This document shows positions 1 through 39,176 of a stretch of 64,000 bases of DNA, one piece after another. The notes under the pieces were generated by a model. That model was not told the origin of the DNA, ran no database searches, and was given only the letters and a program-made list of their open reading frames with translations. This DNA is from Elusimicrobiota bacterium. GTDB taxonomy: Bacteria; Elusimicrobiota; Elusimicrobia; FEN-1173. The stretch's first letter is position 1. Each line of letters opens with the position of its first letter. The stretch is from positions 14,707 through 78,706 of the forward strand of contig JAEURZ010000014.1 of assembly GCA_016788905.1 (NCBI GenBank), read 5' to 3'. Both the position numbers and the translations under genes were made by a program.

Positions 1-1736
1 ATATTCTCCTCGCCTACCTGTGTCGGTTTGCGGTACGGACACACTATGCAGTAACCGCGGGGCTTTTCTTGGCAGCGTAGTTGGGCCGCTTCACATGTCT
101 TGCGACACGCTCGCACTCAGTTCTCGGGATGAACGGCTCCCCGGATTTACCTGGAGAACCTCCCTACCACCTTGGACCGGTGACCTTCTACCGGCCGGCT
201 TACCTTTCTGCGTCCCCCCTCGGTGTGACCCACATAATGTGGTTCAGGAATATTAACCTGATGCCCATCATCTACGCCTTTCGGCCTCGACTTAGGATCG
301 ACTAACCCTGTTCAGACGAACTTTAAACAAGGAAACCTTAGGCTTGCGGCGGGTCTGATTCTCACAGACCTTATCGCTACTTATTCCGACATCCTCACTT
401 CCGTTTCGTCCAGCACTCCTATCGGTGTGCCTTCATCCTACAACGGAACGCTCCCCTACCCCGTACAATGGACGAATCCATCGTACAGCCGTGACTGCGG
501 TATCAGGTTTGAGCCCCGGACTTTTTCGGCGCGACTTAACTTGACGAGTGAGCTGTTACGCACTCTTTAAAGGATGGCTGCTTCTAAGCCAACCTCCTCG
601 CTGTCTGAGTCAAATCACATCCTTTACCACTTAACCTGAATTTTGGGACCTAGGTCGACGGTCTGGGTTGTTCCCCTCTTGCGCACGAAGCTTAGCCCTC
701 GTGAACTGACTGCAGAGTTTTCCCGTATGTATTCGGAGTTTGGTTAGATTCGGAACCGAGGTATTCGGCCCTACACTATCCAGTGCTCTACCTCACACGG
801 TCATCACTCCACGCTAGCCCTAAAGCTATTTCGGGGAGAACCAGCTATCACCAGCCTCGATTGGCCTTTCACCCCTAACCCAAGCTCATGCAGGACATTT
901 TCAACTGTCAACGCTTCGGGCCTCCATCACCGTTTAAGGTGACTTCACCCTGTCCTGGGTTAGATCGACTGGCTTCGGGTCTACTATTGCATACTTGTCG
1001 CCCGTTAAGACTCGCTTTCGCTACGGCTCCACACCTTCAAGGTGCTTAACCTTGCATGCAACAGTAACTCGCCGGATCATTCTTCAACAGGCACGACGTC
1101 GAGCATTCCCCTTGCGGGGCATAGCTCTTCGTCTGCTTGTAAACGCACGGTTTCAGGTTCTTTTCACTCCCCGTCAGGGGTCCTTTTCACCTTTCCCTCG
1201 CGGTACTTGTGCACTATCGGTCGCCAGAGAGTATTTAGCCTTGGAGAGTGGTCTCCCCGGATTCACGCCGAATTTCACGTGCTCGGCGTTACTTAGGTAC
1301 TTGTCGTGAGCCGCTTCGTTTTCGTTTACGGGACTCTCACCCTCTTTGGTCGGCCTTTCCAGGCACGTTCGACTAACGAAGCGATTTTTTACTCACCGGC
1401 TCTAAACCGGACAAGCCCTGCAACACCCACCATAGGATGGGTTTAGGCTGTTCCCCGTTCGCTCGCCACTACTGAGGGAATCTCGTTTGATTTATTTTCC
1501 TCCAGGTACTGAGATGTTTCACTTCCCTGGGTTGTCTCGACAACGGTACCTCTTCCAGTTTCCCGAAAGCATTTCCATTGCCGTTCCGTGATTTGTCACC
1601 ACGGAGGGTTTCCCCATTCAGAGATCTCCGGATCAAAGGTTGCTTGCACCTCCCCGGAGCGTTTCGTCGCTGGCCACGTCTTTCATCGACTTCTGGCGCC
1701 AAGGCATCCACCATGCGCTCTTAGTAACTTAGCCGC
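1..1736 (-). rRNA. rrl: 23S rRNA, 5' ~1.7 kb (3' part lies beyond window start)
   Basis: Reverse complement of 1690-1736 reads ...GGCTAAGTTACTAAGAGCGCATGGTGGATGCCTTGGCGCC, the canonical 23S 5' domain; conserved 23S blocks throughout 1-1700; no long ORFs. Confidence 0.85.
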
Positions 1737-1933
1737 ATCTTTATATCCTCAGTCGCATCGCGCTACTCAAGGCGTTTGGACATAAAACGTCCTAACGTCT
1801 TTTTGAAGCTCGATACAACATACAATTAGACGCTTGACTTTCCTATTCGTGTGTCAAAGAACCGCCTGCGATTGTGGCTTTTCATGCTGCCAGAACCCGG
1901 CGAACTGCAAAATTTGATTTTACAGGATCAAAG

Positions 1934-2006
1934 TGGAGCTGATCGGGATTGAACCGACGGCCTCCTGCTTGCAAAGCAGGCGCTCTCCCAGCTGAGCTAC
2001 AGCCCC
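1934..2006 (-). tRNA. tRNA-Ala (anticodon TGC) in the 16S-23S spacer
   Basis: Reverse complement GGGGCTGTAGCTCAGCTGGGAGAGCGCCTGCTTTGCAAGCAGGAGGCCGTCGGTTCAATCCCGATCAGCTCCA; cloverleaf, TGC anticodon; CCA not encoded. Confidence 0.9.
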
Positions 2007-2112
2007 ATCCTACAAAGAGTTTCACCCTAAATAGTTGGGGCATTCCTCGTATCCTTACGAGGGCAGCCCTCTTGAATAAGGCCCCGGCATCATCCTTACC
2101 CCGCCTTAAACT

Positions 2113-2186
2113 TGGGCGGAAGTGGACTCGAACCACCGGCCTCACCCTTATCAGGGGTGTGCTCTAACCAGCTGAGCTATCCGCCC
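2113..2186 (-). tRNA. tRNA-Ile (anticodon GAT) in the 16S-23S spacer
   Basis: Reverse complement GGGCGGATAGCTCAGCTGGTTAGAGCACACCCCTGATAAGGGTGAGGCCGGTGGTTCGAGTCCACTTCCGCCCA; GAT anticodon. Confidence 0.9.
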
Positions 2187-2357
2187 TGCGGAATTTCCGC
2201 GCCTCTCGCGCGCCGCAGACACCCATAGCTCCGCAAGGGTGCCCGTGATTCCAAAATTTCATTTCCAAATGCCACTTCGCAAGCTGGTGAGCGCCCCAAA
2301 GGCGCTACTGACGATCGACCTCTTTCAGCGACGCCGAAGCGTCCTGAAATACTCCTT

Positions 2358-3895
<1,538 letters not shown>

Positions 3896-25954: not shown

Positions 25955-26947
25955 CTACAATTCCAGCGTGATCCCCCGCTTTAATTGGAGAGCTCTCTGG
26001 TAAACACAACCGGCCACCGCCACATCCTGAATGGCGAGGCCCGTGGAATCGAAAACCGTGATGTCCCGGTCCGATTGGCGCCCGGGTTTCTTCCCCGTCA
26101 CAATTTCACCCAGACTGGCCGCAATGTTTCGAACGGTGATGGTCCCCGCCTCAATACCCATATTGATTTCACCGGAATGAAGGGCTTGTTCGGGACTGTC
26201 CACAATGACCCGCGCCCGCTTCAATATCTCCACATCCAATTCCTGTTTACCCGGGGCATCGGCCCCGATAGCGTTGATATGGGTCCCTTCACGAATCCAA
26301 TCGGATTTCACCACCACGTCCCGGCCCGGCGTGGTGGTCACCACAATGTCCGCCCCACAGGCCTCTTGAACCGTTACCGGACGAAGAACTGGACCGCCCG
26401 AACGGGCGTGGCGCGTGCAGAAAGATTGAGCTTCTTCCAGCGATTGCGCCGCCACGAGAACTTCCCGCAAAGGGAAGAGAGTCGCCAGGGCCGTGAACTG
26501 GGTTGCCGCTTGCCGCCCGGCGCCCACCAAACCCAAAATACTCGATTCTTTCCGGGCCAAATATTTTGCGGCCACACCGCCTCCCGCTCCGGTCCGAACA
26601 TCGGTCAGCCGACCCGCGGCCATGACCGCGAGGGGCATCCCGGTCTCCGGGTCGTTCAGAATATAGATGGCGCTCACCGTGGGCAGTCCCCGTTTGGGGT
26701 TTCCCGGATGGGAATTGACCACTTTGACCCCCGCAAAAGGCCGATTCCCCGCACAGGAAATTTTAGGGATGTAGGCCGGCATGGCCCGCAGGTCGCCCCC
26801 ATATTCCGTAAATTCCAAATAGAGTTTCGGCGGCATTTGGGCATCGCCCCGGGCCAAATGGCCAAAGGCTTCTTCCACCAACGGCATGGCCGCCTCCACC
26901 GTAAGTAAACGATCCACCTCTTTTTCGGAGAGCCAGAGAATGTCCAT
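25955..26947 (-). CDS. Ornithine cyclodeaminase / mu-crystallin family NAD-binding protein
   Basis: LGLVGAGRQAATQFTALATLFP Rossmann motif and overall OCD-family pattern; 330 aa. Confidence 0.65.
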   Translation of the reverse strand: MDILWLSEKEVDRLLTVEAAMPLVEEAFGHLARGDAQMPPKLYLEFTEYGGDLRAMPAYIPKISCAGNRPFAGVKVVNSHPGNPKRGLPTVSAIYILNDPETGMPLAVMAAGRLTDVRTGAGGGVAAKYLARKESSILGLVGAGRQAATQFTALATLFPLREVLVAAQSLEEAQSFCTRHARSGGPVLRPVTVQEACGADIVVTTTPGRDVVVKSDWIREGTHINAIGADAPGKQELDVEILKRARVIVDSPEQALHSGEINMGIEAGTITVRNIAASLGEIVTGKKPGRQSDRDITVFDSTGLAIQDVAVAGCVYQRALQLKRGITLEL

Positions 26948-28224
26948 TAGACCTCCCGGAAGGCAGCTTGCGCCGCGGATAGCGTTTTTTCGATATCGTG
27001 AATCGAATGGGCGGCCGAAACGAAACTCGCCTCAAATTGAGATGGGGGGAAATACACTCCCCGCTTCAACAGACCGTGAAAAAATCTTCCGTAAGCGGCG
27101 GTGTTCGATTTCTCTGCGGAAACCAAATCCGTTACGGGATGAGGAGTGAAGAACACGGTAAACATGGACCCCACATTATTGACCGTGACCTCCACCCCCT
27201 GCCGACGGGCCAGATCCCGTAAGCCCTCTGTCAATAGCTTGGTTTTTTTTCGAAGGGCCCCATAGGGGGGGGATTTTTTTAACAGGGCCAACGTCGCCGC
27301 CCCTGCCGCCATGGCCACCGGATTTCCCGATAGAGTGCCCGCCTGATACACCGGGCCCAAGGGCGCGACCTTTTCCATCAAACGCTTGGGTCCTCCGAAA
27401 GCTCCCACGGGGAATCCGCCCCCAAGAATCTTGCCGAAACAGGTGATGTCCGCCTGAAGCCCCAACCATTCTTGCGCCCCGCCCCACGCCAACCGAAAAC
27501 CTGTCATCACCTCGTCCACGATAAGGAGAGCGCCGTGACGGCGGGGAATATTTTGGAGCGCCCCTTGAAATTCAGGCGAGGGGGAGACCACCCCCATGTT
27601 CCCCACCACCGGTTCAACGATGACGGCCGCAATCTTTTTTCCCCATTTTGAAAACACCTTGGCGAGCGCCACGGGATCGTTGTAGGGAAGGACCAAGGTT
27701 AACCGGGCCAGTTCCTTGGGGACTCCCGCCGATGTGGGGTGGCCCAGTGTGAGAGCCCCACTCCCCGCGGAAACCAAGAGGCTGTCCCCATGGCCATGAT
27801 AACAACCCGCAAATTTCACAATCAACGATCGCCCCGTGGTGCCCCGAGCCAATCGAAGCGCCGAAAGACAGGCCTCCGTTCCCGAACTCGTGAACCGGAG
27901 AAGATCAACGGTGGGATAGGCCTGGCGCACCAAATGGGCCAGGGCGAGTTCCCGGGGGGAGGGTGCTCCAAAGGAACTGCCCTCTTCCAAGGCCCGGCGG
28001 GCCTCCTGAACAACGACCGGATGGGCGTGGCCCAAAATCAGAGGGCCCCAGGATCCCACGTAATCCACATATTTTTTGTTGTCCACATCCGTGAGGGTAG
28101 AGCCCCGGGCCCGGGCCATAAAGACGGGGGTTCCCCCCACCGCGCGAAAGGCACGCACGGGGGAATTAACTCCTCCCACAAATATTTTTTGGGCTTGCTT
28201 AAAAAGAGTTTGGGAACGGGTCAT
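26947..28224 (-). CDS. hemL: Glutamate-1-semialdehyde 2,1-aminomutase HemL
   Basis: LFKQAQKIFVGGVNSPVRAF...VDEVMTGFR class-III aminotransferase / HemL signature; 425 aa. Confidence 0.9.
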   Translation of the reverse strand: MTRSQTLFKQAQKIFVGGVNSPVRAFRAVGGTPVFMARARGSTLTDVDNKKYVDYVGSWGPLILGHAHPVVVQEARRALEEGSSFGAPSPRELALAHLVRQAYPTVDLLRFTSSGTEACLSALRLARGTTGRSLIVKFAGCYHGHGDSLLVSAGSGALTLGHPTSAGVPKELARLTLVLPYNDPVALAKVFSKWGKKIAAVIVEPVVGNMGVVSPSPEFQGALQNIPRRHGALLIVDEVMTGFRLAWGGAQEWLGLQADITCFGKILGGGFPVGAFGGPKRLMEKVAPLGPVYQAGTLSGNPVAMAAGAATLALLKKSPPYGALRKKTKLLTEGLRDLARRQGVEVTVNNVGSMFTVFFTPHPVTDLVSAEKSNTAAYGRFFHGLLKRGVYFPPSQFEASFVSAAHSIHDIEKTLSAAQAAFREV

Positions 28225-29072
28225 GGGGTCTCCGTATCGTTGGGAGGTGCAGGGACATAGACCGTGGTGTTCTCCGGAAGCCCATCTCGACGAATTTGAA
28301 ATCCACCGGGTGGTAAAAATTTTACACGTTCAAATCTTTCGATAAAAGGCGCCAGAGGATTGAACTCAAAGAAGCGCGTGCGTGGGGTACCGTAATGCAT
28401 GGGGATCACAACACGGGGGCGAATTTCCTGGACCAACCCCGCCGCCGTTTCTGCGTCAACGGTGGTTCGGCCCCCCACAGGAATAAAAAGGACATCCACC
28501 CCCGTTAAGGCTTCTTTTTGTTCCGGTCGAAGGGAGCGCTGGCCCATATCCCCTAAATGGGCCCACCGAAGCCCTCCCATCTCCCACACATACATTCGGG
28601 TGGTTCCGTTCCTTCGCCCTTCCTGATCATCATGGTCCGCCAATGTCCCGACCACCTCGATTCCCGCGACCATTTGGGTTCCCGTACTGCGCACCACAGG
28701 AAAAGCCGCGGACGCCGATGGGGCCGCGCGGGATTCGGACCTTCGAGACAGACTCACTTCCTTCCCGGCGACCACATTATTTTCTTGGGCTGGCAAAAGA
28801 GCAGGAGGCTTAGGAACCGCGTCGTGGTCAAAGTGTTCGTGGGACACCAGGGCCGCGTCCGGCTTGATCTTCACCGCCGGATACCCGACCGTATCGTCAA
28901 AGGGGTCCAGAAGAAAAACCCGCCCCGCGCTGTCCTGAAGCGTGAAACAGGAATGCCCTTTCCAAACCACGAATACCCCGAGATTCGGATCGCCAGGCGG
29001 TCGGACCAGGGGACGCGAGAAACATCCACTTCCCCCCAGAACGATAAGACAAACGAACCAAAATGGCTTCAT
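28221..29072 (-). CDS. Metallo-beta-lactamase-fold hydrolase, lipoprotein
   Basis: Signal/lipobox LGGSGC; HEHFDHD zinc-binding motif. Confidence 0.6.
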
Positions 29073-30046
29073 TGATCCGCGAGCCGTTGAGCCATCTCCT
29101 GGGCGTGGTAGGTCAAAATCACGTCGGCGCCCGCACGCTTAATGGAAAGGAGGATTTCTTCCATGACCCTTGGCCCGTCCACCCATCCTTTCGCCGCGGC
29201 GGCCTTCACCAGGGCGTATTCGCCCGAAACGTTGTAAGCGGCCACCGGTACATCAAACCGATCTCTGACCCGTTGGATCACGTCCAAATAGGCTAACGCG
29301 GGTTTCACCATGACCATGTCGGCCCCTTCTTCTAGATCCAACGCTACTTCCTTGAGGGCTTCACGACCGTTGGCGGGGTCCATCTGATGGGTTCGTCGAT
29401 CCCCAAAGGCCGGAACCGACTGGGCCGCGTCTCGGAACGGGCCGTAGAAAGACGAAGCGTATTTAGCGGCGTAGGCCAAAATGGCCGTGTTCTTTCGACC
29501 GTCCGCGTCCAAGGAACGTCGGATGGCGGCCACCGCGCCGTCCATCATTCCGGAGGGAGCCACCCAATCGGCGCCCGCGGCCGCTTGCACGAGGGCTGTT
29601 CGGCTCAAGAGTTCAAGCGTGGCGTCGTTATCAATTTCAGCACCACGAACAACCCCACAATGGCCGTGATCCGTGTATTCACAAAGACACAAATCCGTTA
29701 TTACAAGCAGGTCAGGCAAGGCGTCTTTCACCGCCCGAACAGCCCGCTGGACAATTCCATCGGGAGAATAAGCGTCTCGTCCAAGGGGATCCTTCTTGGC
29801 TGGAACACCAAAAAGGATGATCGCGGGAACCCCCAGCTTCGCGCAGGCGCGGGCGTCTTTGACCATCTGATCGACGGAAAGCTGGCTGACGCCCGGCATG
29901 CTTCGCACAGAGCGGCGTTCGTTTTTTCCGGGTCGAACAAAAAACGGTTGAATCAAATCGGCGGGAGTCAGTTCTGTTTCACGGAGCATACGCCGGGAAG
30001 AAAGGGACGATCGGAGCCGACGGGGACGAATTTTAGGGAGGGGCAT
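29069..30046 (-). CDS. hemB: Porphobilinogen synthase (delta-aminolevulinate dehydratase) HemB
   Basis: RPRRLR...LIQPFFV N-terminus, active-site lysine context [12 protein letters not shown]; 325 aa. Confidence 0.9.
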
Positions 30047-30050
30047 GGAA

Positions 30051-30863
30051 CTATTTTACTTTTTCCCTGAAACCCTGGGCCAGAATCCGAAGCATCGCCG
30101 GATGGATGGGTCCGTTCGAAGCCAGCGTCTGGGACGTGTCGGTTAACGCGTAGGGCCGACCCCTGAAATTCGTCACCCGTCCACCGGCCTCCTCCACCAA
30201 CAATTTCCCAGCGGCCGCGTCCCAAGGTTTAAGATTAAATTCCCAATACCCGTCAAATCGCCCCGCCGCCACATAGGCCAAATCCAAGGCCGCCGCTCCC
30301 AGCCGCCGCAGCCCCTGAACCCGTTGCATGAATTGTTCCACGAAGGAGAGATAGAAGCGGGCTTTTTTATGCCTGTCGTAAGGGAAACCCGTCACGAGCA
30401 AACTGTCGATCAAACGTTGGGTTTTGGAAACATGAATCGGGCGCCCATTCAATGTGGCTCCTTTTCCTTTCACCGCAATAAATAGTTCTTCCCGAAAAGG
30501 ATCATAGACACCCCCCATCAAAACCTGTCCGTTTTTTTCCAATCCGATGGACACACAACTGATGGGAACCCTGTGGGCAAAGTTCACCGTCCCGTCCAAA
30601 GGATCCACCACCCAGCGGTATTCCGAGGAAGAGGCGTGGAGGCCTGACTCTTCCATGAGAAACCCATGGTCCGGGAACGCGCCGCGAAGAACGTTAAGAA
30701 TCTTTTTTTCTGCCGCGTGGTCCACCGTTGTCACGATGTCGACCACTCCCTTGTGCGAAATAGAAATAGACCGGCGAGCCCCCCGCCGGTGAATGGCCCC
30801 CGCCTCGGTTAAGGCGCGACGAAGCGCGCGCAACAAAGAAGTGGGTGTGGGCGTTGCGTTCAT
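30051..30863 (-). CDS. Inositol-monophosphatase-family protein (SuhB/CysQ-like)
   Basis: [12 protein letters not shown] metal-binding motif and GG..DP... IMPase fold. Confidence 0.75.
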
Positions 30864-30892
30864 GCTTGAACCGCACCGATCAGGAAATTATG

Positions 30893-30934
30893 ATGCTTAC
30901 AAAACATAATGTTTATTAAACATTATGTTGTTGG
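30893..30934. repeat. Left copy of palindrome-containing inverted repeat (ATGCTTACAAAACATAATGTTTATTAAACATTATGTTG) flanking the DUF234 ATPase gene
   Basis: Contains AACATAATGTT and its complement AACATTATGTT; 19/22 identical to the reverse complement of 32247-32268. Confidence 0.7.
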
Positions 30935-32217
30935 AGAAGGGAACCGATATCGGACATCCCCAAAATTCGATATTCGACAGGCGACAACGTTGAACTTAAG
31001 CGTGTTGAGATAAACCGACGCTCCAAATCCCGCGTCAGGCCAGCTCGTTCATCTGAAGAAAGTGCCCGCCATTTGCATTCCCCCACCAGGTGCGCACGTT
31101 GAGAAGGGATCCGCGCCACCACATCGATTTCGACCAAACTTTCCCAGTATCTCCCACCACCCGGAAAACGGGACCGACAAAAAATCTCCCATTGACGGGC
31201 CACATGCTGATGAATTCTCTCCAGTTTTTCCTTGGAATCCATCGCCCCCCATCGGTGTCGCGTGGGCAAATAGACGCTGTAGTAAAAGCGCAAGGCAGGG
31301 TCCTGAATGGTGTAAAGAACCTTTTTCGTGGAGCGTGGAGTTTGTCCAAAGGGGGATTCCCGGTTCACAAAGCCCAGATCCAAGAGGAGAGCCAGCGGTC
31401 GGGACAGGTTCCCTTGGGGAAGTCCCAACCGAGACGCGAGCTCTCCTGGTTTTGACACCCCACGCCCAATCAGGTCCACCAGCGCTTTCGCGACCGTGCC
31501 CGACACCCCTTCTTCCGTCAACCAGGCGGACGGCTCTGCCGCCAAGGGCGCGGACGGACGGTAATACAATTCCTCCACCTGTTCTAAAAGCGACCCACGC
31601 GGCATCATCCGCCAATAGTGAGGAACGCCTCCCACTATAGAGTATCGACTAAACGTGAGGGGATCCAAGGGATTATAGTGGAGTGCCCGACAGAACCATT
31701 CGTAAGGAAGGGGATCCAAGTTTAAATGGAAATCGGCGCGCCCAAAGAGAGGAGACTCTTGACGCAGGAAATGAGAATGCAGCATGGATTGGGAAGACCC
31801 AGAGACCAAAAGGAGGGTTTTGTGTTTCGGGAGTTCGTGGTCCACCCATTCCTGGAGAACGCTGGGAAGCGTGGGATCCCCCTGGACCCAGTAAGGAAAT
31901 TCGTCGAAGACGACCAAGCTCGGCCATTTTTCTCGGGAAAGGAGCGAAAGGAATTCCACCCAGCTTTTGGGAACCACACTTTTGAGGATCGGGAAATGGG
32001 ATTGAAACTCCTCGGCCAAGTGGAGAATTTGTTGTTGGGGTGTTCCCTCAACGGCTTGATGATACAGCCCCCCCCCCTCCTGACAGATTTCCCCCAGAAG
32101 AGCCGTTTTTCCCACACGACGGCGTCCCGTGACTAAACCGAACCCTCCGTGACGGAGAGCGCGGCGTAATTGCTTTAGTTCATCGGTCCGGTTCCAAAAC
32201 ACGCGCAGAGGGGCCAT
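30916..32217 (-). CDS. AAA+ ATPase with C-terminal DUF234 (PD-(D/E)xK-like) domain (archaeal-ATPase family)
   Basis: Walker A GLVTGRRRVGKTALL, Walker B LVVFDEF, C-terminal EIDVVA...VGECKW typical of DUF234; ATG at 32217 preferred over the TTG two codons upstream. Confidence 0.7.
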   Translation of the reverse strand: MAPLRVFWNRTDELKQLRRALRHGGFGLVTGRRRVGKTALLGEICQEGGGLYHQAVEGTPQQQILHLAEEFQSHFPILKSVVPKSWVEFLSLLSREKWPSLVVFDEFPYWVQGDPTLPSVLQEWVDHELPKHKTLLLVSGSSQSMLHSHFLRQESPLFGRADFHLNLDPLPYEWFCRALHYNPLDPLTFSRYSIVGGVPHYWRMMPRGSLLEQVEELYYRPSAPLAAEPSAWLTEEGVSGTVAKALVDLIGRGVSKPGELASRLGLPQGNLSRPLALLLDLGFVNRESPFGQTPRSTKKVLYTIQDPALRFYYSVYLPTRHRWGAMDSKEKLERIHQHVARQWEIFCRSRFPGGGRYWESLVEIDVVARIPSQRAHLVGECKWRALSSDERAGLTRDLERRFISTRLSSTLSPVEYRILGMSDIGSLLQQHNV

Positions 32218-32227
32218 GGCCAATAAT

Positions 32228-32268
32228 AATGCTAGTTAAACATTATGTTTGTCAAGCATTATGTTTAA
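32228..32268. repeat. Right copy of inverted repeat (AAACATTATGTTTGTCAAGCATTATGTTTAA) between cobA-hemD stop and ATPase start
   Basis: Two tandem ACATTATGTTT units; reverse complement ATGCTTGACAAACATAATGTTT matches 30893-30914. Confidence 0.7.
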
Positions 32269-33797
32269 GACAACGTTTTGACGACCGCGCGGGCGAGATC
32301 TTCAACGGTGGCGGAACCGGTGGCCTGAAGGGGGCGGATGCCCCCGGCGCGAAGCGCTTGGCTTGTGATCGGGCCGATGGAGACGGCGCGGGTCCGGGAA
32401 AAAATTCGTTGACGCTCCCGGGGGGTGAAATTCCTCATGAAGGAGGTGGCCGTTGACGAGGATGTAAACGTGACGGCGTCCATCTCACCGGCTCGAAGCG
32501 TGGCCTGGGCCTCCGGGGTGAGGGCCACCGGCTTTGTTTCGTAAAGGGGCCACAGGTCCACGGAGGCCCCGCGACGGGCCAAGACCGTTTGGATCACATC
32601 CCGGCCTTCTCGGGCCCGAACCAAAAGATACTTTTTCCCTCTCAGGGTTCGCCCGAACAAGGAGACCACTCCTTCCGATTGAAAGGTGTCAGCGGTTCGA
32701 TAAACACGAAGATCCTCAGACCGAAGGGCGTCCGCCGTTTTAGCCCCAATCGCGTAGAGAGGAAGGCAGGCCCGCCCCTTAAGATGTCTGGACAAAATTT
32801 TAGCTCCGTTCGCGCTGGTGACGATGAGACCATCATACTCCGAGAGTTTTTTTAAGAATTGCCGCCCGGTGGTATTGAGGGGCAACGGGGTGATGGCGAT
32901 GAGCGGGCTTTCGATGACACGGGCTCCCGATTCTTCTAAAAGCCCGGTGAGACCGGAGGCTTGATCCCGAGCGCGCGTCACAAGAACCGTTTTCCCAAAG
33001 AGGGGCCGTTTTTCAAACCAGTTCAGTTTAGTCCGAAACCCGGCAACATCACCCACCACAATGATCGCGGGCGCCCCAAGACGTTCCGCTTTCACTCTCT
33101 GGGAAATATTCTCCAACGTGCCGCGAACGGTCTTCTGTTGAGGCCAACTCCCCCATTGAACGACGGCCGCCGGGAGTGAAGACGGCCATCCGAGATCCAA
33201 AAGTCTCCGGGCGATCACGGGCAACTGGTTGAGACCCATCAAAACCACCAAGGTCCCCGTGGGTGAAATTTTAGCCCAATCCACCCCCGGCCCCCGCCGG
33301 CGGGCCGACTGCCCGGCGCTCTCTCCCAAATAGGGGTTTTCTCGGCCTTCATGCCCCGTCACCACTGTGAGTGCAGACGCGTGACCCCGGTGAGTTAATG
33401 GAATGCCCGCCAATCCGGGGACCGAGGTGACCGAACTCACACCGGGGACCACCTCAAAGGGAATCCCCTGATCAGCCAAGGCTTCCGCCTCTTCCGCTCC
33501 CCGACCAAAGAAGTAAGGATCTCCGCCTTTTAACCGCACGACAGTTTTCCCCTGTTTCGCTAACCGAACAATCAGCCGGTTAATGTCGGGTTGCCGTAGA
33601 AACACCCGCCCTCCGCCCCGCTTCCCCGCTTCGATAATTTTCACTTTGGGGGAACAGTGGGATAAAATTCGCCGGTCCACCAGGGCATCCAACACCACCA
33701 CATCGGCCCGGCGGAGACACTCCACCCCGCGCAAGGTCATTAAATCCGGACGACCGGGACCGGCACCAACCAGGTAAACTGTTTTTGATGGGATCAC
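32265..33797 (-). CDS. cobA/hemD: Fused uroporphyrinogen-III C-methyltransferase / uroporphyrinogen-III synthase (CobA-HemD)
   Basis: N-terminal VYLVGAGPGRPDLMTLRG SUMT motif; C-terminal half has the HemD fold; 510 aa. Confidence 0.85.
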   Translation of the reverse strand: MIPSKTVYLVGAGPGRPDLMTLRGVECLRRADVVVLDALVDRRILSHCSPKVKIIEAGKRGGGRVFLRQPDINRLIVRLAKQGKTVVRLKGGDPYFFGRGAEEAEALADQGIPFEVVPGVSSVTSVPGLAGIPLTHRGHASALTVVTGHEGRENPYLGESAGQSARRRGPGVDWAKISPTGTLVVLMGLNQLPVIARRLLDLGWPSSLPAAVVQWGSWPQQKTVRGTLENISQRVKAERLGAPAIIVVGDVAGFRTKLNWFEKRPLFGKTVLVTRARDQASGLTGLLEESGARVIESPLIAITPLPLNTTGRQFLKKLSEYDGLIVTSANGAKILSRHLKGRACLPLYAIGAKTADALRSEDLRVYRTADTFQSEGVVSLFGRTLRGKKYLLVRAREGRDVIQTVLARRGASVDLWPLYETKPVALTPEAQATLRAGEMDAVTFTSSSTATSFMRNFTPRERQRIFSRTRAVSIGPITSQALRAGGIRPLQATGSATVEDLARAVVKTLS

Positions 33798-34318
33798 GAT
33801 CGTTTTTCAAAACCAATTTTGCGGATCGGGTGAGTCGGTCCATCCAGAAGGGGATGAATCAGGTCGAACATTTTTTGGACGTAGTCGGTGAGCCCCTCGG
33901 TTCTTTTCTCTTGCGCCGCGATGCGTCGAGCAAGATCTCGATGCAGGGAGATCCCCTGGCGAAGCCGAACGAAAGCACGCATAATGGCAATGTTGACATC
34001 AATAGCGCGTGGGCTACGAAGCACACCCGACAACATGGCGACGCCCTGCTCGGTAAAAACGTAGGGGCGCGCCTTAGGATCGCGGTGCTTTTGCGAACCG
34101 GTCACAATCTGTGACCGGTTCAGCTGTCGTAATTCACCCAAGGATAATTGGAACATAAAATCATCTGGAAACCGTTTGAGGTTACGTCGAACCGCTTGGT
34201 TTAATACTTTTGTGGGGACCCCATAGAGGGTGGCCAGATCTTTGTCCATCATGACCTTGTGCCCACGAATCAAATAGATTTGTTCATGGATGCGCTGTTC
34301 AGGAATGAGGAAACTCAT
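33794..34318 (-). CDS. ORF6N-domain protein (KilA-N-related, phage antirepressor-like DNA-binding protein)
   Basis: IRGHKVMMDKDLATLYGVPTKVLNQAVRRNLKRFPDDFMFQLS matches the ORF6N domain consensus; 174 aa; 4-nt overlaps with both neighbours. Confidence 0.7.
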   Translation of the reverse strand: MSFLIPEQRIHEQIYLIRGHKVMMDKDLATLYGVPTKVLNQAVRRNLKRFPDDFMFQLSLGELRQLNRSQIVTGSQKHRDPKARPYVFTEQGVAMLSGVLRSPRAIDVNIAIMRAFVRLRQGISLHRDLARRIAAQEKRTEGLTDYVQKMFDLIHPLLDGPTHPIRKIGFEKRS

Positions 34319-35235
34319 GGGAGAAGAGTTTCTAGAATTTCCAGGGCCCCTTGATTAAGCAGACGTTGGGCAAGAGTTTGTCCTATTTTGGGGGCGTCAG
34401 TGAGGAGACCAGTTTCTGTGCCTTTCACATCATTTTTACCATCGACGGACGTGACCCGTCCATCCAAAACAAGTTGGCCCGCCTCTTCCCGGGCGTACGC
34501 CGCGATGGGAACGCGACATCCGCCTCCCAGAGCCGCCAGGAAGCCGCGCTCCGCGATGGCGGCGTGTTGGCCAGGCAGATGATTGAGCTGGGACACCCAT
34601 TTCATCGTCTCAGGATCTTCTCCGCGAATTTCGATGGCCACAAACCCTTGGCCGGGCGCGGGGAGAACAAGATCGAATGGCAAAACTTCCGTCACCTCTT
34701 CGGCCCGGCCCAAGCGACGCACCCCGGCGTAAGCCACCACCACGGCCGAAAAATCTCCCGCCGCCACCCGACCCAAACGGGTGTCCAAATTCCCCCGCAG
34801 ATCTTCAATCCGGATGCCTTTTTTGACCGCACGGATTTGGGCCTGTCGGCGGAGCGAACTGGTTCCGATGACCGATCCCCGGGGGAGTTCCATCAACTGT
34901 TCCCCGAACCGCGACACCACACAATCCCGGGGATCTTCCCTCTCCAAGATGGCGCCGACCATTAATCCCGAAGGGAGTTCCGTAGGAAGATCTTTCAGCG
35001 AATGGACCGCCAGGTCCACGGTCTTGGAGAGAAGGGCTTCTTCCAACTCTTTGGTGAACACCCCTTTCCCGCCAATCGACGCGAGGGAAGCGTCCGCCAA
35101 ACGATCCCCCGTGGTTTTAATGATTTGGAGATCGACTTGAAGACCCGGGGAAAGAGATTCCAATCGACTTTTGACAAAGCGGGATTGGGCCAGAGCTAAG
35201 GCGCTTCCGCGTGTGCCGATCGTTAAACGGGTCAT
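34315..35235 (-). CDS. hemC: Hydroxymethylbilane synthase (porphobilinogen deaminase) HemC
   Basis: LTIGTRGSALALAQ N-terminus and dipyrromethane cofactor Cys region; 306 aa. Confidence 0.9.
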   Translation of the reverse strand: MTRLTIGTRGSALALAQSRFVKSRLESLSPGLQVDLQIIKTTGDRLADASLASIGGKGVFTKELEEALLSKTVDLAVHSLKDLPTELPSGLMVGAILEREDPRDCVVSRFGEQLMELPRGSVIGTSSLRRQAQIRAVKKGIRIEDLRGNLDTRLGRVAAGDFSAVVVAYAGVRRLGRAEEVTEVLPFDLVLPAPGQGFVAIEIRGEDPETMKWVSQLNHLPGQHAAIAERGFLAALGGGCRVPIAAYAREEAGQLVLDGRVTSVDGKNDVKGTETGLLTDAPKIGQTLAQRLLNQGALEILETLLP

Positions 35236-36317
35236 CCGGGCTCCGCCTCAACGCTTAAGGATTCGCGGGAGTTGTGGCGGAGCGCCGCGGTGGTTCCCTG
35301 CCGCCAGGAATCATACCAGGGCGAAAACTCCTTGGCTTTTTCATCCACCAGCCGCCCGGCCTTGTCGATCTCCGACTCGCGTTGGACCAGACTTTCGGAG
35401 ACGATCCCTTCCAAGTCGTCGATGTTGTAGAGATAAACGCTGTCCAATTCATCCACAGCGGGATCCACATCCCGGGGAACCGCAATGTCAATAAAAAAGA
35501 GGGGTCGCCCATGGCGCTCATCGATAACGCGCGCGATGTCTTCTTTCTTAAAAATAGTTCCGGCCGCACCTGTGGAACATATGACGATGTCCGCTTGAAC
35601 CAGTTCTTGGGGAAGGGCTTCGAAGGGGGTGGGATGGGCCCCGAACTGTTCCGCCATGGCGACCGCTTTTTCAAGCGTGCGGTTGGCGATCGTGAGTCGC
35701 CCCACCTTTTGGCTTTTGAGCGCCCGAGCCGCCAGTTCCGCCATGGCCCCGGCGCCGACGACCAGAGCACGGCTCTCGGATAGTTCCCCGAAAATGCGGC
35801 GGGCCAGGGAAACGGCCAGACTGGGAACTGAGGTGGGCCCCTCGGCAATTTTGGTTTCCGTGCGGACGGTTTTTCCCACAAACATGGCCCGCTGAAAAAG
35901 AACGTTGGTGAGTTTGCCCGTGGACTGGGATTGGCGGGCCAGATCGTAGGAGCGTTTCACTTGACCCAATATTTCGGCCTCTCCCACCACCAGGGAATCG
36001 AGCCCCGCCACCACGCGAAACAGGTGCCGGATCGCTGCATCGTCCTCCAAGGCGTACAAGCTTCCGTCCAACGAGACATCCCCGTGTAAATCCAACAGAC
36101 CTTTCCGCAAGAGACATTCGGCATCACCTTCCGGCGGGGTGGCGGCGTACACTTCCACGCGGTTGCAGGTGGAGAGGACCACCGCTTCCACGACACCCAC
36201 CGACTGGCGAAGGGAAAACAGGAAGGCCGGCAACCGATTGTCCGACACCGCCAACCGCTCCCGCCATTCCACGGGGGCGGTCCGGTGAGACACACCCACC
36301 ATGCGGAGCCGTTTCAT
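35232..36317 (-). CDS. hemA: Glutamyl-tRNA reductase HemA (start at internal Met MKRLRMVGVSHRTAPVEWRE)
   Basis: VGVSHRTAPVEWRERLA, catalytic Cys context LSTCNRVEVY, NADPH-binding GAGAMAELAARAL; ORF part upstream of 36317 overlaps the preceding gene. Confidence 0.85.
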   Translation of the reverse strand: MKRLRMVGVSHRTAPVEWRERLAVSDNRLPAFLFSLRQSVGVVEAVVLSTCNRVEVYAATPPEGDAECLLRKGLLDLHGDVSLDGSLYALEDDAAIRHLFRVVAGLDSLVVGEAEILGQVKRSYDLARQSQSTGKLTNVLFQRAMFVGKTVRTETKIAEGPTSVPSLAVSLARRIFGELSESRALVVGAGAMAELAARALKSQKVGRLTIANRTLEKAVAMAEQFGAHPTPFEALPQELVQADIVICSTGAAGTIFKKEDIARVIDERHGRPLFFIDIAVPRDVDPAVDELDSVYLYNIDDLEGIVSESLVQRESEIDKAGRLVDEKAKEFSPWYDSWRQGTTAALRHNSRESLSVEAEPG

Positions 36318-37228
36318 TGTTTTTCTATGGCCACGTAGCCGTGGGTCTTTGAAACATAGTTGATTCCCATGTAACTCACGAGAACAAGCCCAAATCCGGC
36401 GAGCGATAGGTAAGCCGCCCGCCGCCCCCGCCAATTAAACCCGTAACGGAGAACCAGATAGGCCAGGTAGACCGCCCAAACCACAACGGACCAAATGATT
36501 TTGGGATCCGATACCCAGCCGCCCCCCCATGACGAATGGGCCCAGACAATGCCCAACCCGAGCCCCAGGGTGAGCGCTGGGAATGCAACCGCGATGAGCC
36601 GCGCGATCAAACGATCCATTTCTTCTAAGGAAGGCAATCGATACCCCAACTCCGTGGGGCGCCGGGTTTTAATCTGGCGTTCTTGGATGAGAAAAGCCAA
36701 CCCAATTCCGAAGGCATTCGCGAACGCCGCGTAGGCCAAGAAAAGGAGAGGCACATGGATGGCGGCCCAAACGGAAACCGGCATGACCGACAGATGGCGC
36801 GTGGCGTCCGCGGCTTTAAGAAAGTCTTCAACCGAAGCAAACGGACACCGAGGACTTGCGAGGAACGCTTTGGTCAACGCCAATCCCATCAAGAGAAGAG
36901 CCCAGGGCAAAACGAAGGCCCCCAAGATGGCAAGCCGCGCCCGCGTTTGAACCCCCAGAAAAACAACAACGATCAAGAGAGAAAAGAGCGAGAGGCTCGT
37001 AAACCAATTGCTCCAAAACCCGTAGGCCACGTGGCCGGGCCGATGGCTTTCCGCCCAGAGGCCGAGCGCGAGGCTTGCGGCGTGGAGGACCACGGATCCC
37101 CAAAGAATCCGATGCCCCAGGGAACCGTGCCGGTCCCGACGGGAGAACACGTAGGTCAAATACAGGATCACCGCGGTCAGGTAACCAATAAACCCAAAAT
37201 CAAAAAGAAGCGCTTCAATTTTTTGCAC
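36314..37228 (-). CDS. Cytochrome c assembly (CcsA/HemX-like) integral membrane protein
   Basis: Multiple TM helices, W-rich segment (WAHSSWGGGW) typical of the CcsA/ResC heme-handling family; position upstream of hemA as hemX in hemAXCDBL; start (GTG 37228 or ATG 37297) uncertain. Confidence 0.55.
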   Translation of the reverse strand: MQKIEALLFDFGFIGYLTAVILYLTYVFSRRDRHGSLGHRILWGSVVLHAASLALGLWAESHRPGHVAYGFWSNWFTSLSLFSLLIVVVFLGVQTRARLAILGAFVLPWALLLMGLALTKAFLASPRCPFASVEDFLKAADATRHLSVMPVSVWAAIHVPLLFLAYAAFANAFGIGLAFLIQERQIKTRRPTELGYRLPSLEEMDRLIARLIAVAFPALTLGLGLGIVWAHSSWGGGWVSDPKIIWSVVVWAVYLAYLVLRYGFNWRGRRAAYLSLAGFGLVLVSYMGINYVSKTHGYVAIEKQ

Positions 37229-37865
37229 GGTTTCTCCTGACTCTCCGCATTTCCCGCTGGGCCACACGGCGGAACGAGGCCGTGGCCTGGCGGCCATCCG
37301 TTTTGAACCGATCCATCCATTCCCGCGTCACAAGCTCGGTGAGAAGGGTGCGCCGCGCGCGAATGGGAACCCGCAAAAGCTCCGAACGAAGACCCTTTAA
37401 TACCGCCGCCACCCGCCCCACTTCGGGGCCAAAACGGGCGCGCAGTTCCGCTCCAAGAAATTTTGCCACCGCCGGGCTCAGCCCACCCGTCGAGACCGCA
37501 AAGGTCACTGGCCCCCGCCGAACCACCGCCGGAACAATAAAATCGCAGAGGGGCGGGCGGTCCACCACGTTCACCCAAACCCGCCTGGAACGACAAAGCG
37601 CGGCGATCCGTGCGTGAAGCGCTTCATCATCCGTGGCGGCCACCACCAGCCAGGGCGCGGGAGATAAATCCCCCGGCCGAAAAGAACGTCGAATAACGCG
37701 AATCTCATTTAATCCACTGAACCCCGGCAAAACACGCGGGGCCACCACGGTCACTCGAGCCCCCGCGGACCGGAGATCTTGGGTTTTGTGCAGAGCCAGC
37801 CTCCCCCCCCCAACCACCAGGCATTCTTTTCCAGTCAGGTTCAAAAACGCGGGGTAAAATCCCAT
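37215..37865 (-). CDS. Precorrin-2 dehydrogenase / sirohydrochlorin ferrochelatase (SirC / CysG N-terminal domain)
   Basis: FLNLTGKECLVVGGGRLALHK Rossmann motif of siroheme synthase N-domain; 216 aa. Confidence 0.75.
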   Translation of the reverse strand: MGFYPAFLNLTGKECLVVGGGRLALHKTQDLRSAGARVTVVAPRVLPGFSGLNEIRVIRRSFRPGDLSPAPWLVVAATDDEALHARIAALCRSRRVWVNVVDRPPLCDFIVPAVVRRGPVTFAVSTGGLSPAVAKFLGAELRARFGPEVGRVAAVLKGLRSELLRVPIRARRTLLTELVTREWMDRFKTDGRQATASFRRVAQREMRRVRRNRAKN

Positions 37866-38006
37866 GGGAGGCAGGTCCTCCCGTCAATCATAGTCAAAAG
37901 GAGACCGGTCCGGCAACCCAGGCCCGTGATTAATCCCTATTATCGTTTTATTGATAAATCGAAAATAAACTGATACGCTGTTTTCGGCCTCGACAGAAGC
38001 CTTTCT

Positions 38007-39176
38007 ATGACGAACCTTACAAAATCCCCTGGACGCTGGATCCATCGACCGGAAGGTTATCGCGCCTTTCTCCCAAACCCCTTACCCCCTGGGCTTTCTT
38101 TTTCCCCTCGAGTGAGCCGCGCCTTGTCCGATGCGGACCTTCTCTTGGGACGGTTGGCCGGGGAGGGGAAACAGCTTCCCAATCCCCACCTGCTCATTCG
38201 CCCCTTTATCCGAAGAGAGGCCGTCCTTTCCAGCCGGATAGAGGGGACCCAAGCAACGCTCGGGGAACTTTTGGCCGTGGAAGCGGGGGCCGCGGTGGAG
38301 CGAAGCCCCTTAGATCTTCGGGAGGTCGGCAACTACGTCGTGGCCTTGGAACACGGCAGGGCTCGGCTTAAAAAGATCCCCCTTTCTCTTCGACTTATCC
38401 GTGAACTTCATGCGAAACTCATGAAGGGGATGGCCCCCCCCCATTGGACCCCGGGAGAATTTAGACGATCCCAGAACTGGATCGGCCCCTCAGGATGCAC
38501 GCTCATGAACGCCAGCTATGTCCCTCCACCACCGGAGGAATTGATGAATTGCCTGGGGTCCTGGGAAAAATTTCTCCATGATCAAACGTTCCCCCCCCTT
38601 ATTCAAATAGCCTTGGCTCACTACCAGTTTGAAGCCATCCATCCTTTCCTGGATGGGAACGGGCGCGTGGGACGCCTGCTTATTTCTCTTTTCTTAACGG
38701 AAAGGGGAATCCTTCCCACTCCGCTACTTTATCTCAGCGCTTTTTTTGAGGCCACGCGTCCGGAATATTACGAGCGGCTGAGCGGGGTGAGCGCCCGAGG
38801 GGAATGGGATCTCTGGCTCCTCTATTTCCTCAGCGGCGTTGCACGACAATCGGAAGATGCTTTGAGCCGAGCCGAACGAATCAATCGGATTTTGGCGGAT
38901 TGGAGAATCCTGACCGCCAAATCTCCATCAAAATTACCCCCACAGATCATTGACAGCCTGGCCGCAAATCCTTTTCTCACAACAAAATCGGCTATGCAAA
39001 CGTACGGAGTCGCCTTTTCAACCATCCAACGGGCCATCGAATTTCTCGTCCGACGGTCCGTTCTCAAAGAAGTCAGTGGAGGAAAGCGGGACCGGGTCTA
39101 TTGCGCTCAGAAAATTCTTAGAATTTTGGAAGAACCCGCCCAACTCCTTCCTTCTCCCCGGAGTAAAAGAATTTGA
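38007..39176 (+). CDS. fic: Fic-family protein (AMPylator) with N-terminal inhibitory motif and C-terminal winged HTH
   Basis: Active-site HPFLDGNGRVGR (HxFx(D/E)GNGRxxR); inhibitory helix motif SRIEGT ((S/T)xxxE(G/N)) near the N-terminus. Confidence 0.85.
   Translation: MTNLTKSPGRWIHRPEGYRAFLPNPLPPGLSFSPRVSRALSDADLLLGRLAGEGKQLPNPHLLIRPFIRREAVLSSRIEGTQATLGELLAVEAGAAVERSPLDLREVGNYVVALEHGRARLKKIPLSLRLIRELHAKLMKGMAPPHWTPGEFRRSQNWIGPSGCTLMNASYVPPPPEELMNCLGSWEKFLHDQTFPPLIQIALAHYQFEAIHPFLDGNGRVGRLLISLFLTERGILPTPLLYLSAFFEATRPEYYERLSGVSARGEWDLWLLYFLSGVARQSEDALSRAERINRILADWRILTAKSPSKLPPQIIDSLAANPFLTTKSAMQTYGVAFSTIQRAIEFLVRRSVLKEVSGGKRDRVYCAQKILRILEEPAQLLPSPRSKRI

Follow-up and report, generated by a model that had tools for sequence, protein, structure and literature searches.

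How did a gene for a putative DNA-binding protein come to lie in the middle of a heme biosynthesis operon, and why has it been kept there? The question is raised by a 64-kb stretch of an Elusimicrobiota genome (contig JAEURZ010000014.1, positions 14,707 to 78,706; hereafter the window), in which a gene of the ORF6N family is wedged between hemC and cobA-hemD. A preliminary description, made from the letters alone, had considered the gene to be a phage-type insertion that was either domesticated as a regulator or cryptic. Based on comparisons with related operons, plasmids and metagenomic homologs, we favor another reading, to which we assign a probability of roughly 55%: ORF6N is a captured and functional DNA-binding module that is not specific to heme metabolism and uses the hem operon for its expression.

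By open reading frame (ORF) annotation and Pfam/NCBIfam profiles, the minus strand from 26.9 to 37.9 kb forms a single, tightly packed heme operon in the order sirC, CcsA/HemX-like gene, hemA, hemC, ORF6N, cobA-hemD, ATPase_2/DUF234 gene, inositol-monophosphatase (IMPase)-family gene, hemB, MBL-fold gene, hemL and archaeal-type alanine dehydrogenase gene (Table 1). Every hem gene named in the preliminary description was recovered on this strand by profile matches, and direct reading of the sequence likewise bears out its placement of the gene for a 174-residue ORF6N protein between hemC and cobA-hemD, each of which it overlaps by 4 nt.

A scan for hemC in one genome per GTDB species yielded only three close species, all of them represented by metagenome-assembled genomes (MAGs) of activated-sludge Elusimicrobia; the next matches are 51% identical and stem from Acidobacteria. 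In the following, WIN denotes the window copy, L-numbers denote the loci or contigs of relatives, and P0004, P0007 and P0009 are plasmid copies. In the three close species (L018, L019 and L020; hemC 82-85% identical), there is no ORF6N between hemC and cobA-hemD. In L018, the two genes are joined by a GTGA overlap, which represents a clean empty site, and in L020 they overlap as well, while a 413-bp non-coding spacer separates them in L019. None of the 80 other hemC loci, i.e. the three sister species and 77 more distant ones, has an ORF6N gene. The preliminary description had regarded the gene as foreign to the operon, and had named its presence at the same position in all relatives as the finding that would speak against this. 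The three sister species and the 77 other loci leave that view standing, and a check of GC content at third codon positions (GC3), which it had proposed, also sets ORF6N (0.55) apart from its neighbors (0.59-0.67). We also considered whether the empty sites retain remnants of the gene and rejected this, as the L018 and L020 junctions are clean and the L019 spacer is dissimilar to ORF6N. This spacer (L019 6913-7325) contains hairpin-forming segments and shares a 46-nt piece with the sirC-ccsA gap (L019 3905-3950 and L020 1078-1123). It resembles a small repeat element and suggests that the junctions of this operon accept insertions repeatedly.

Where ORF6N is present, it is strikingly constant. 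Nine contigs, which stem from several samples of the wastewater type, encode the identical protein, annotated by NCBI as that of an Elusimicrobia MAG, and its context is the same in all of them. The gene occupies the exact same junction in WIN and in three further metagenomic lineages, L201 (95% protein identity), L198 (90%) and L007 (94% over the aligned part). Between WIN and L198, synonymous sites are saturated, with a synonymous divergence (dS) of 1.16 for ORF6N and of 1.4-3.6 for its neighbors; the ORF6N proteins are nevertheless 90% identical, as compared to 78-87% for the hem enzymes. The ratio of non-synonymous to synonymous divergence (dN/dS) of ORF6N is 0.04-0.10 across the lineages and 0.04 for this pair. 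A ratio of 0.04 together with 90% identity at saturated dS implies that purifying selection has acted throughout the separation of these lineages. The gene is intact, as had been noted before, and more conserved between lineages than hemC at the protein level, so that the idea of a cryptic insertion is not borne out. Judged from these sequence comparisons, ORF6N is an old and well-kept insertion in the operon, neither cryptic nor decaying.

The source of the insertion is indicated by its closest relatives outside of hem operons. The nearest such copies at the amino acid level are P0004 (82% identity), P0007 and P0009 (67-69%), all of which lie divergently beside a small parA gene on contigs of about 9-10.5 kb. 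Several of the parA-ORF6N contigs (L011-L016, L195-L197) have terminal assembly repeats of 141 and 127 nt, indicating that they are circles. They share a plasmid-like backbone of an integrase gene, a 382-residue ORF, a 76-residue ORF, parA and the divergent ORF6N, and carry a variable cargo that includes RES-Xre, ParE, PIN and MazE toxin-antitoxin pairs, HU, hemerythrin and cupin genes. One of the plasmid contigs shares its sample of origin with a window-type contig, and the index of the collection lists the P0007 variant in 48 blocks. In a protein tree, all four hem copies group together in a single clade, which has P0004 as its sister and falls among the plasmid copies. Taken at face value, this places a single capture of ORF6N, from a family of circular ParA plasmids of about 9-10 kb, into the hemC/cobA-hemD junction of activated-sludge Elusimicrobia. 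Recent gene conversion between plasmid and chromosome was rejected as an alternative, as the copies agree in no more than about 75% of their nucleotides overall, and no 60-nt window exceeds 85%. Two short sequence features were also considered: TCTCCCATGA stands immediately before the start codon of both plasmid and hem copies but is too short to serve as evidence, and the repeated AACGTCAA motifs of the plasmid parA-ORF6N intergenic region, examined as a possible ORF6N site at the hem promoter, were not seen upstream of sirC on inspection by eye.

This origin modifies the phage-type, antirepressor-like character proposed in the preliminary description, which holds for the fold and not for the source. 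The Pfam profile of the ORF6N domain (PF10543) matches residues 13-99 above its gathering threshold and nearly end to end (profile positions 2-86 of 86), and Pfam gives no match past residue 99. The predicted architecture comprises a KilA-N/winged-helix-like domain at about residues 13-99, a long helix at residues 103-158 and a disordered tail with a conserved I-G-F at its end. In the AlphaFold2 model, which has a mean pLDDT (predicted local distance difference test) score of 76.7 and scores of 83-93 over residues 11-60 and 81-120, the N-terminal domain would be of the alpha/beta winged-helix-like type and the helix would suit dimerization. Foldseek searches of BFVD with this predicted model retrieve viral KilA-N, antirepressor and Bro proteins (E = 2e-6 to 1e-3), and the PHROG 4792 'anti-repressor' profile matches residues 11-124, with PHROG matches confined to the N-terminal domain, so that the KilA-N-like fold proposed earlier agrees with the model. 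In the PDB, structure searches give only weak winged-helix matches, the SKI/SnoN DHD (E = 0.06) followed by MarR, and a sequence search gives nothing useful (best E = 0.76).

The window protein thus has the N-terminal domain and predicted fold of phage antirepressors and other KilA-N, ORF6N and Bro-N proteins. Unlike these, it ends in one long helix and a short disordered tail, and Pfam and the model reveal no C-terminal ANT, ORF6C or KilA-C domain. Furthermore, antirepressors are encoded by phages, whereas the window gene is located in housekeeping DNA together with an rRNA operon, and its subfamily is nearly absent from sequenced phages: in curated collections, homologs occur in 4 of 50,697 phage records as compared to 28 plasmid records, and a scan of IMG/VR returned 10 loci as compared to more than 583 in a metagenome scan. 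No phage genes were found among the scanned ORFs of the window, which contains heme, glycine-cleavage, lipoate, glmS and rRNA genes instead, and no further ORF6N copy is present in it. A distant phage-borne relative does exist in a sister MAG. This 57% identical homolog (L193, JAYRXX010000073.1, 5001-5522) is the sole gene on its strand there, is flanked by two DNA methylase genes and adjoins terminase and portal genes, in a prophage of the same MAG that carries the ORF6N-free hem operon L020.

Within the operon, the captured gene has become part of an uninterrupted run of -4 junctions (ccsA/hemA, hemA/hemC, hemC/ORF6N and ORF6N/cobA-hemD). The sirC gene is preceded by a GGGAGG ribosome-binding site, and the sigma-70-like match upstream of it is the probable promoter of the operon. 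By contrast, no Shine-Dalgarno-like sequence and, in a consensus scan, no promoter match lies directly upstream of ORF6N or cobA-hemD. We infer that ORF6N is translationally coupled to both of its neighbors: it would be transcribed from the hem promoter upstream of sirC and translated by termination-reinitiation at the ATGA overlap with hemC, and ribosomes would then be passed on to cobA-hemD via the GTGA overlap. A search around ORF6N found no flanking or terminal repeats and no target duplication beyond the NTGA common to both junctions, a sequence that translational coupling demands as well.

The most unusual feature of the gene is a perfect palindrome within its coding sequence (Table 1). 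Perfect palindromes with arms of at least 11 nt occur only twice in the window, here and in a repeat of the ATPase cassette described below. To judge this site across the family, 95 distinct homologous ORFs were lined up solely by aligning their proteins, with the residue that corresponds to I71 as the anchor. The nucleotides at distances 2-13 on either side of the center are Watson-Crick paired in 80-93% of these ORFs (67% at distance 7), and the symmetry often extends to within one nucleotide of the center. Of 12 possible pairs, 10.2 are formed on average, compared to 4.8 after resampling of synonymous codons with the protein sequence fixed, and perfect 12/12 sites make up 48% of the observed and 0% of the resampled sequences. 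Homologs with different arms differ by changes on both sides, as in AGGTCACAA/TTGTGACCT (encoding RSQIVTS), AGGTTCCAA/TTGGAACCT (RFQIGTL), AAATCGCAA/TTGCGATTT (KSQIAIS) and AACTGGTCACAA/TTGTGACCAGTT (NWSQIVTSS). In 59 segments that were chosen as being in register, which leans the result slightly towards structure (the count over 95 ORFs is free of this bias), 92.6% of the cells are paired, as opposed to 68.7% in shuffles (reached in 0 of 500) and 23-42% when the partner column is slid. These segments show 164 double-sided changes, compared to 42 in shuffles, and nearly no one-sided changes of the G-U type.

This pattern disfavors a hairpin in the sense-strand RNA: G-T mismatches are rarer (14) than A-C mismatches (51), and one-sided changes are nearly absent. 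Together with the symmetry close to the center, the mismatch pattern points to a dyad symmetry of double-stranded DNA. On the protein level, the segment covers the last part of a helix and runs into the beginning of a loop modeled with low confidence (pLDDT below 50 for residues 71-75); a hypervariable stretch comes next, and in the model the protein appears to tolerate whatever sequence the DNA demands at this position. In the hem copies, the arms match those of the nearest plasmid copy, L195, and are identical in all four lineages, including eight wobble positions, despite the dS of 1.16 between WIN and L198; by a rough estimate from the proportion of synonymous differences (pS = 0.59), the chance of this is about 1e-3. 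The palindrome is not universal, as it has been lost in a copy embedded in a liv operon. Conversely, seven copies embedded in nuo or type III restriction-modification (R-M) operons (L099, L104, L108, L111, L127, L128 and L140) have a tandem duplication of the RSQIVT motif region, and in those checked (L104, L111, L127 and L128) both duplicates are palindromic in the DNA, resulting in two intragenic sites about 30-50 nt apart. We found no description of the intragenic palindrome, or of the sequence itself, in the searchable literature, including the papers on the PDC-S05 family cited below.

What could bind this site? A search with the consensus 13-mer TC[AG]CA[AG]N[CT]TG[CT]GA, which matches the intragenic anchor in 70 ORFs, found 33 further matches in ORF6N loci totaling 573 kb, compared to a chance expectation of 0.55. 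Of these, 20 lie 11-405 nt upstream of ORF6N start codons, some of them in arrays (four in L119, three in L148, and two each in L140 and L106). Likewise, when the site of each locus was compared with the 300 nt upstream of its own gene, at least 15 of 18 positions matched in 7 of 60 loci, as compared to 2 of 968 control windows, and the 13-mer is absent from 847 kb of ORF6N-free hemC loci. At the level of the family, stand-alone members thus display what is expected of an autoregulator, a covarying dyad site that is repeated in the promoter of its own gene. From this covariation and the promoter copies in stand-alone homologs, positions 34095-34121 are probably the operator of an ORF6N dimer. 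The window copy has the intragenic site only; the consensus was found nowhere else in the 64 kb, including hemC and the hem promoter.

Operators inside coding sequences are known from gal OI, which lies within galE, and lac O2, which lies within lacZ, and in both systems, looped or roadblock repression makes use of a promoter site combined with one inside the gene. As in gal OE/OI and lac O1/O2, the ORF6N dyad is part of a coding sequence, and stand-alone ORF6N genes pair it with one or more promoter sites about 250 bp away. The family differs in that the site resides in the gene of the regulator itself and dictates part of its amino acid sequence, and the hem-embedded copy differs further in that it has no promoter-proximal site; here, an operator role is deduced from sequence.

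These elements can be assembled into the reading that we favor. The ORF6N product is predicted to be a dimeric DNA binder of the winged-helix/KilA-N type, with the 27-bp palindrome in its own coding sequence as the candidate target. With the operator inside the ORF, the gene would constitute a self-contained, self-limiting and portable cassette that could work in any transcription unit. As the operator is carried along within the ORF, a bare plasmid ORF could settle in a biosynthetic operon, and this would also account for the occurrence of the family in R-M, BREX, nuo and liv operons. Selection would keep the protein for a function other than heme synthesis, most likely interference with plasmids or phages that bear the same operator, and the identical 11-nt arms of the nearest plasmid copies would fit an interference with such cognate-site plasmids. 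Alternatively, selection may maintain a controller-like braking of the host operon, alone or together with interference. As a side effect, transcription of the hem operon could meet a roadblock, and the gene would have become entrenched because a frameshift or nonsense mutation in it would be polar on the downstream cobA-hemD.

Several observations weigh against this reading. One comes from the L007 lineage, in which ORF6N (L007 8001-8465) has suffered an in-frame deletion of 60 nt between 7-nt direct repeats GTTCGAC, equivalent to window positions 34130-34189. It takes out the RRNLKRFPDDFMFQLSLGEL/FPDDFMFQL core, 20 residues that form the most conserved part of the domain, and has been seen in five contigs, which derive from four or more samples. 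The protein is accordingly dispensable in at least one lineage. Furthermore, there is no copy of the palindrome in the parA-ORF6N intergenic region of the plasmids, so that an action in trans on plasmids would have to rely on the intragenic site alone, and the palindrome itself could serve another factor or act as a cruciform. Two features of the gene are not explained by simple vertical descent. Its synonymous divergence among WIN, L201 and L007 is 2-4 times below that of its flanks, and its GC3 of 0.49-0.55 stays about 10 points under that of the host genes (0.59-0.67) in each of the four lineages, saturating dS notwithstanding; the plasmid relatives have 0.62-0.66. In addition, the hem-protein tree discussed below places the ORF6N-free L018 inside the ORF6N-bearing set, and the one PDC-S05 protein with a protective effect, also discussed below, carries a RhuM domain and is not of the short form seen here.

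The L007 deletion also bears on the domestication as a hem regulator that had been suggested earlier. In this account, a dimer bound to the intragenic palindrome would brake cobA-hemD, hemB and hemL relative to sirC, hemX, hemA and hemC, and would thereby tune tetrapyrrole flux. The palindrome does separate the upstream half of the operon from the downstream half and is perfect in four lineages, the protein is under strong selection, the gene forms a full link in the chain of translational overlaps, and gal OI and lac O2 would provide an analogy for intragenic operators. Yet three sister species and 77 other taxa run the operon without ORF6N, and the L007 lineage dropped the DNA-binding core and kept the operon intact. 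The family as a whole has no association with heme and is found on plasmids, in a prophage and in unrelated operons such as R-M, nuo and liv. Moreover, if the palindrome is the binding site, its only copy in the window is inside the gene and not at the hem promoter. We thus see no specific support for a dedicated hem regulator and consider it unlikely.

The same deletion can be read in yet another way. It spares the palindrome, the reading frame and both overlaps, which is expected if frameshifts are polar on cobA-hemD. ORF6N might then be a pure hitch-hiker of no benefit to the host, locked into the coupling chain of an essential operon where only in-frame changes or exact excision are tolerated. 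The 4-nt overlaps on both sides and the missing Shine-Dalgarno sequence of cobA-hemD would fit such a passenger, as would the clean empty site in L018 and the fact that the sole damaging mutation observed is this frame-preserving one. However, preservation of the frame by itself predicts neither a dN/dS of 0.04-0.10 nor an amino acid identity above that of hemC, and it does not predict the eight unchanged wobble positions of the palindrome either. This makes a mere passenger rather improbable, and we return to a functional module with a role outside heme synthesis as the better account of the conservation.

Departures from vertical descent raise the question of mobility. In a bootstrapped neighbor-joining tree of six concatenated hem-operon proteins, WIN and L007 are grouped in 100% of the replicates, and a grouping of WIN, L007 and L198 to the exclusion of L018, i.e. 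a monophyletic presence of ORF6N, is seen in only 0.9%. The position of L018 therefore requires at least one precise loss or one lateral transfer, with the proviso that the tree was built from this operon alone and could be misled by recombination. A further irregularity concerns WIN and L007: among 3,475 aligned operon codons, no other stretch of 153 codons is as conserved at synonymous positions as ORF6N, with 81% identical synonymous codons compared to a mean of 50% (standard deviation 8) and a maximum of 70% elsewhere (p = 2e-8 in a Fisher test against hemA, hemC and cobA-hemD). Both the tree conflict and this local conservation would be accommodated by an actively mobile, ORF-sized cassette that inserts at operon stop/start junctions in a homing-like or site-directed manner and spreads between related lineages, and independent members of the family do sit precisely at gene junctions of unrelated operons, with their stop overlapping the next start. 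Such a pattern can, however, also arise from the survivorship of non-polar insertions, and embedding on both sides is seen in just 6 of 34 well-flanked homologs. Pfam, NCBIfam and structure searches find no transposase, recombinase or nuclease domain in a protein whose model consists of a winged-helix domain and a helix only, and neither terminal repeats nor a convincing target duplication were found around the gene. Every contig that encodes the identical protein also has it at the same location, and there was no recent exchange with the plasmid copies. A mobile cassette of this kind is therefore very improbable, and we retain the single capture of a functional module.

The habit of embedding itself extends well beyond the hem operon. 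In a survey of 34 metagenomic homologs with at least 1 kb on each side, in which ORF calling was crude and fractions are rough, co-directional neighbors within 100 nt were found on both sides in the six cases mentioned and on one side in nine more. Examples are a nuoM-ORF6N-nuoN arrangement in four related contigs, res-ORF6N-mod in type III R-M systems (L104 and L146) and, in a Liv-type ABC transporter, a homolog that separates the periplasmic gene from the permease gene. Where the host operon is hem, liv or nuo, the stop of ORF6N overlaps the next start as xTGA. The other homologs stand alone with long intergenic regions or lie in conjugative or transposon-rich plasmid segments. The family is large, with 31,001 matches at E <= 0.001 and 15,354 at E <= 1e-10 among 1.84 billion cluster representatives, including many full-length relatives at 55-60% identity.

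Embedding is also what brought this family to attention as a defense candidate. Three PADLOC profiles of PDC-S05 match ORF6N, two of them, PDLC04869 (E = 2e-52) and the 177-position PDLC04856 (E = 4e-50), over the full length of the protein and the third with E = 6e-35. PDC families were defined by 'guilt-by-embedding' from genes within BREX, DISARM and type I R-M operons (Payne et al., bioRxiv 10.1101/2024.01.29.577857), and PDC-S05 ranks with the most frequent candidate systems of urban wastewater (PMC12853721). A PDC-S05 member with a RhuM domain protects E. coli from T7, T5 and T4, with plating of T7 and T5 reduced about 1000-fold (10.1101/2024.09.26.614923), and RhuM-like proteins embedded in R-M operons had been proposed earlier to be toxins (Anantharaman et al. 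2013, PMC3710099). By its profile matches, the window protein corresponds to the short PDC-S05 form without the RhuM C-terminal part. It shares with PDC-S05 genes the operon-embedded position and the wastewater habitat, but is hosted by a housekeeping biosynthetic operon and not by a defense system. Similarly, RhuM-like proteins have a homologous N-terminal region (as seen in a 306-position PDC-S05 profile) and a comparable habit of embedding in R-M operons, but possess an additional C-terminal domain, often fused to DOC and proposed to be toxic, that has no counterpart in the window protein. For the ORF6N protein, no mechanism is described in the searchable literature.

Further defense-model matches occur nearby, a SoFic gene at 3.7 kb upstream of ORF6N and, at 1.6 kb downstream of it, a PDC-S27-like gene, while the host operon is one of heme biosynthesis. 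Three defense-associated genes, matching PDC-S05, PDC-S27 and SoFic, are thus found in or around one biosynthetic operon. L007 lacks the SoFic gene at the equivalent place and has another Fic gene past the opposite end of its operon. The PDC-S27-like gene encodes the ATPase_2/DUF234 protein, which has a C-terminal MarR/HTH_20-like region. It is missing from L007, L018, L019, L020 and L198, is separated from its neighbors by gaps of 47 and 52 nt, and is a second, younger insertion in the form of a discrete cassette bracketed by repeats. The accessory genes that had been described as interleaved with the hem genes are therefore of two kinds, as the IMPase-family and MBL-fold genes are present in all relatives, where the order IMPase, hemB, MBL, hemL (26947-30863) is the same.

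Apart from its inserts, the operon is of a familiar type. Heme operons of the hemAXCDBL type occur in Bacillus subtilis and other bacteria, and the present one resembles them in the content and order of hemA, the CcsA-like hemX, hemC, hemD (in this case fused to cobA), hemB and hemL, preceded by sirC. It differs in the extra conserved IMPase-family and MBL-fold genes and in the two lineage-specific inserts, ORF6N and the ATPase_2/DUF234 gene. The starts of hemA and the ccsA-like gene were set from relatives, as the longest ORFs overextend both. Neither hemE, hemN and hemH nor Ahb genes were found among the scanned ORFs of the window, and 64 kb are too short a span for this to bear on the siroheme-dependent (Ahb) route mentioned in the preliminary description. 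A B12-binding radical-SAM protein, encoded at the same place in L007, is not identifiable as an Ahb or HemN enzyme by NCBIfam profiles. The other genes include glycine-cleavage genes, lipoyl synthase, glmS, pdxJ, glmM, cdaA, a PEP-utilizing enzyme, purK and hydrogenase/NuoF genes, and the rest of the window is ordinary chromosome.

Table 1. Coordinates of the heme operon, its inserts and further features, in positions of the 64-kb window
Feature	Position	Strand	Basis or remark
rRNA operon at the window edge	1-3895	-	16S 2360-3895, tRNA-Ile 2113-2186, tRNA-Ala 1933-2006, 23S 5' part 1-1734
hemL	26947-28224	-	TIGR00713
MBL-fold gene	28221-29072	-	
hemB	29069-30046	-	
IMPase-family gene	30051-30863	-	
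44-nt AT-rich palindromic repeat, 3' end of the ATPase cassette	30886-30929	.	Holds the other perfect palindrome, 30903-30929
ATPase_2/DUF234 gene	30916-32217	-	Pfam; PADLOC PDC-S27-like, E = 1e-26
Partner repeat copy, 77% identical, upstream of the ATPase gene	32222-32265	.	Repeat search
Promoter-like site of the ATPase gene, in the upstream repeat copy	32226-32255	-	Promoter scan; TTGACA-18-CATTAT
cobA-hemD fusion (uroporphyrinogen-III C-methyltransferase and uroporphyrinogen-III synthase), downstream neighbor of ORF6N	32265-33797	-	TIGR01469 and PF02602
GTGA overlap of the ORF6N stop and the cobA-hemD GTG start	33794-33797	-	Read from the sequence; tcGTGAtc
ORF6N gene, 174 residues	33794-34318	-	PF10543, E = 4e-31, 107.5 bits vs cut-off 27.8
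Perfect palindrome of 12+12 nt with a 3-nt center, inside ORF6N	34095-34121	.	Coding strand GAACCGGTCACA gat TGTGACCGGTTC; encodes L-N-R-S-Q-I-V-T-G-S
ATGA overlap of the hemC stop and the ORF6N start	34315-34318	-	Read from the sequence; ccATGAgt
hemC (hydroxymethylbilane synthase), upstream neighbor of ORF6N	34315-35235	-	TIGR00212, E = 1.5e-100
hemA (glutamyl-tRNA reductase), 361 residues	35232-36317	-	TIGR01035; start set from relatives
CcsA/HemX-like membrane protein, 304 residues	36314-37228	-	PF01578; start set from relatives
sirC-like precorrin-2 dehydrogenase, first gene of the operon	37215-37865	-	TIGR01470, 133.7 bits vs cut-off 62.3
Sigma-70-like promoter match upstream of sirC	37887-37916	-	Consensus scan, 9/12 matches
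Fic_N-Fic gene, divergent from the operon	38007-39176	+	PADLOC SoFic, E = 8e-113
B12-binding radical-SAM protein, 577 residues	41161-42894	+	Same place in L007; best NCBIfam match far under cut-off

The existence of ORF6N/PDC-S05 genes and their habit of embedding are already known. New are the dated capture into a core operon with a take-over of its coupling, the embedding in housekeeping operons, and the intragenic palindrome with its covariation at the codon level and its promoter copies. The capture is a case in which a gene from a mobile element was spliced into a core operon without breaking it, took over its stop/start overlaps and was kept for a long time (dS > 1). The palindrome is an unusually clear case of a constraint at the DNA level that shapes a protein sequence, and explains the conserved look of a surface loop; at the same time, its covariation offers a specific candidate DNA target for a large uncharacterized family. 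This family is embedded in R-M, BREX and housekeeping operons alike, and embedding may therefore characterize the gene itself and not be evidence for a role in defense.

A more general view, which we put forward only tentatively and hold to be possible at best, is that ORF6N/PDC-S05 genes are self-contained 'plug-in' regulatory cassettes, with a palindromic operator of 21-35 bp in the ORF that dictates part of the protein. If this were true, a bare ORF would bring its own feedback control to any operon, be it for heme synthesis, NADH dehydrogenase, a transporter, restriction-modification or BREX, and would impose a roadblock on its host operon. The embedding in defense operons would then reflect portability or a controller-like role rather than a role as an effector, and the hem copy would represent an operon with an internal brake, or a plasmid-exclusion factor that was itself gained from a plasmid.

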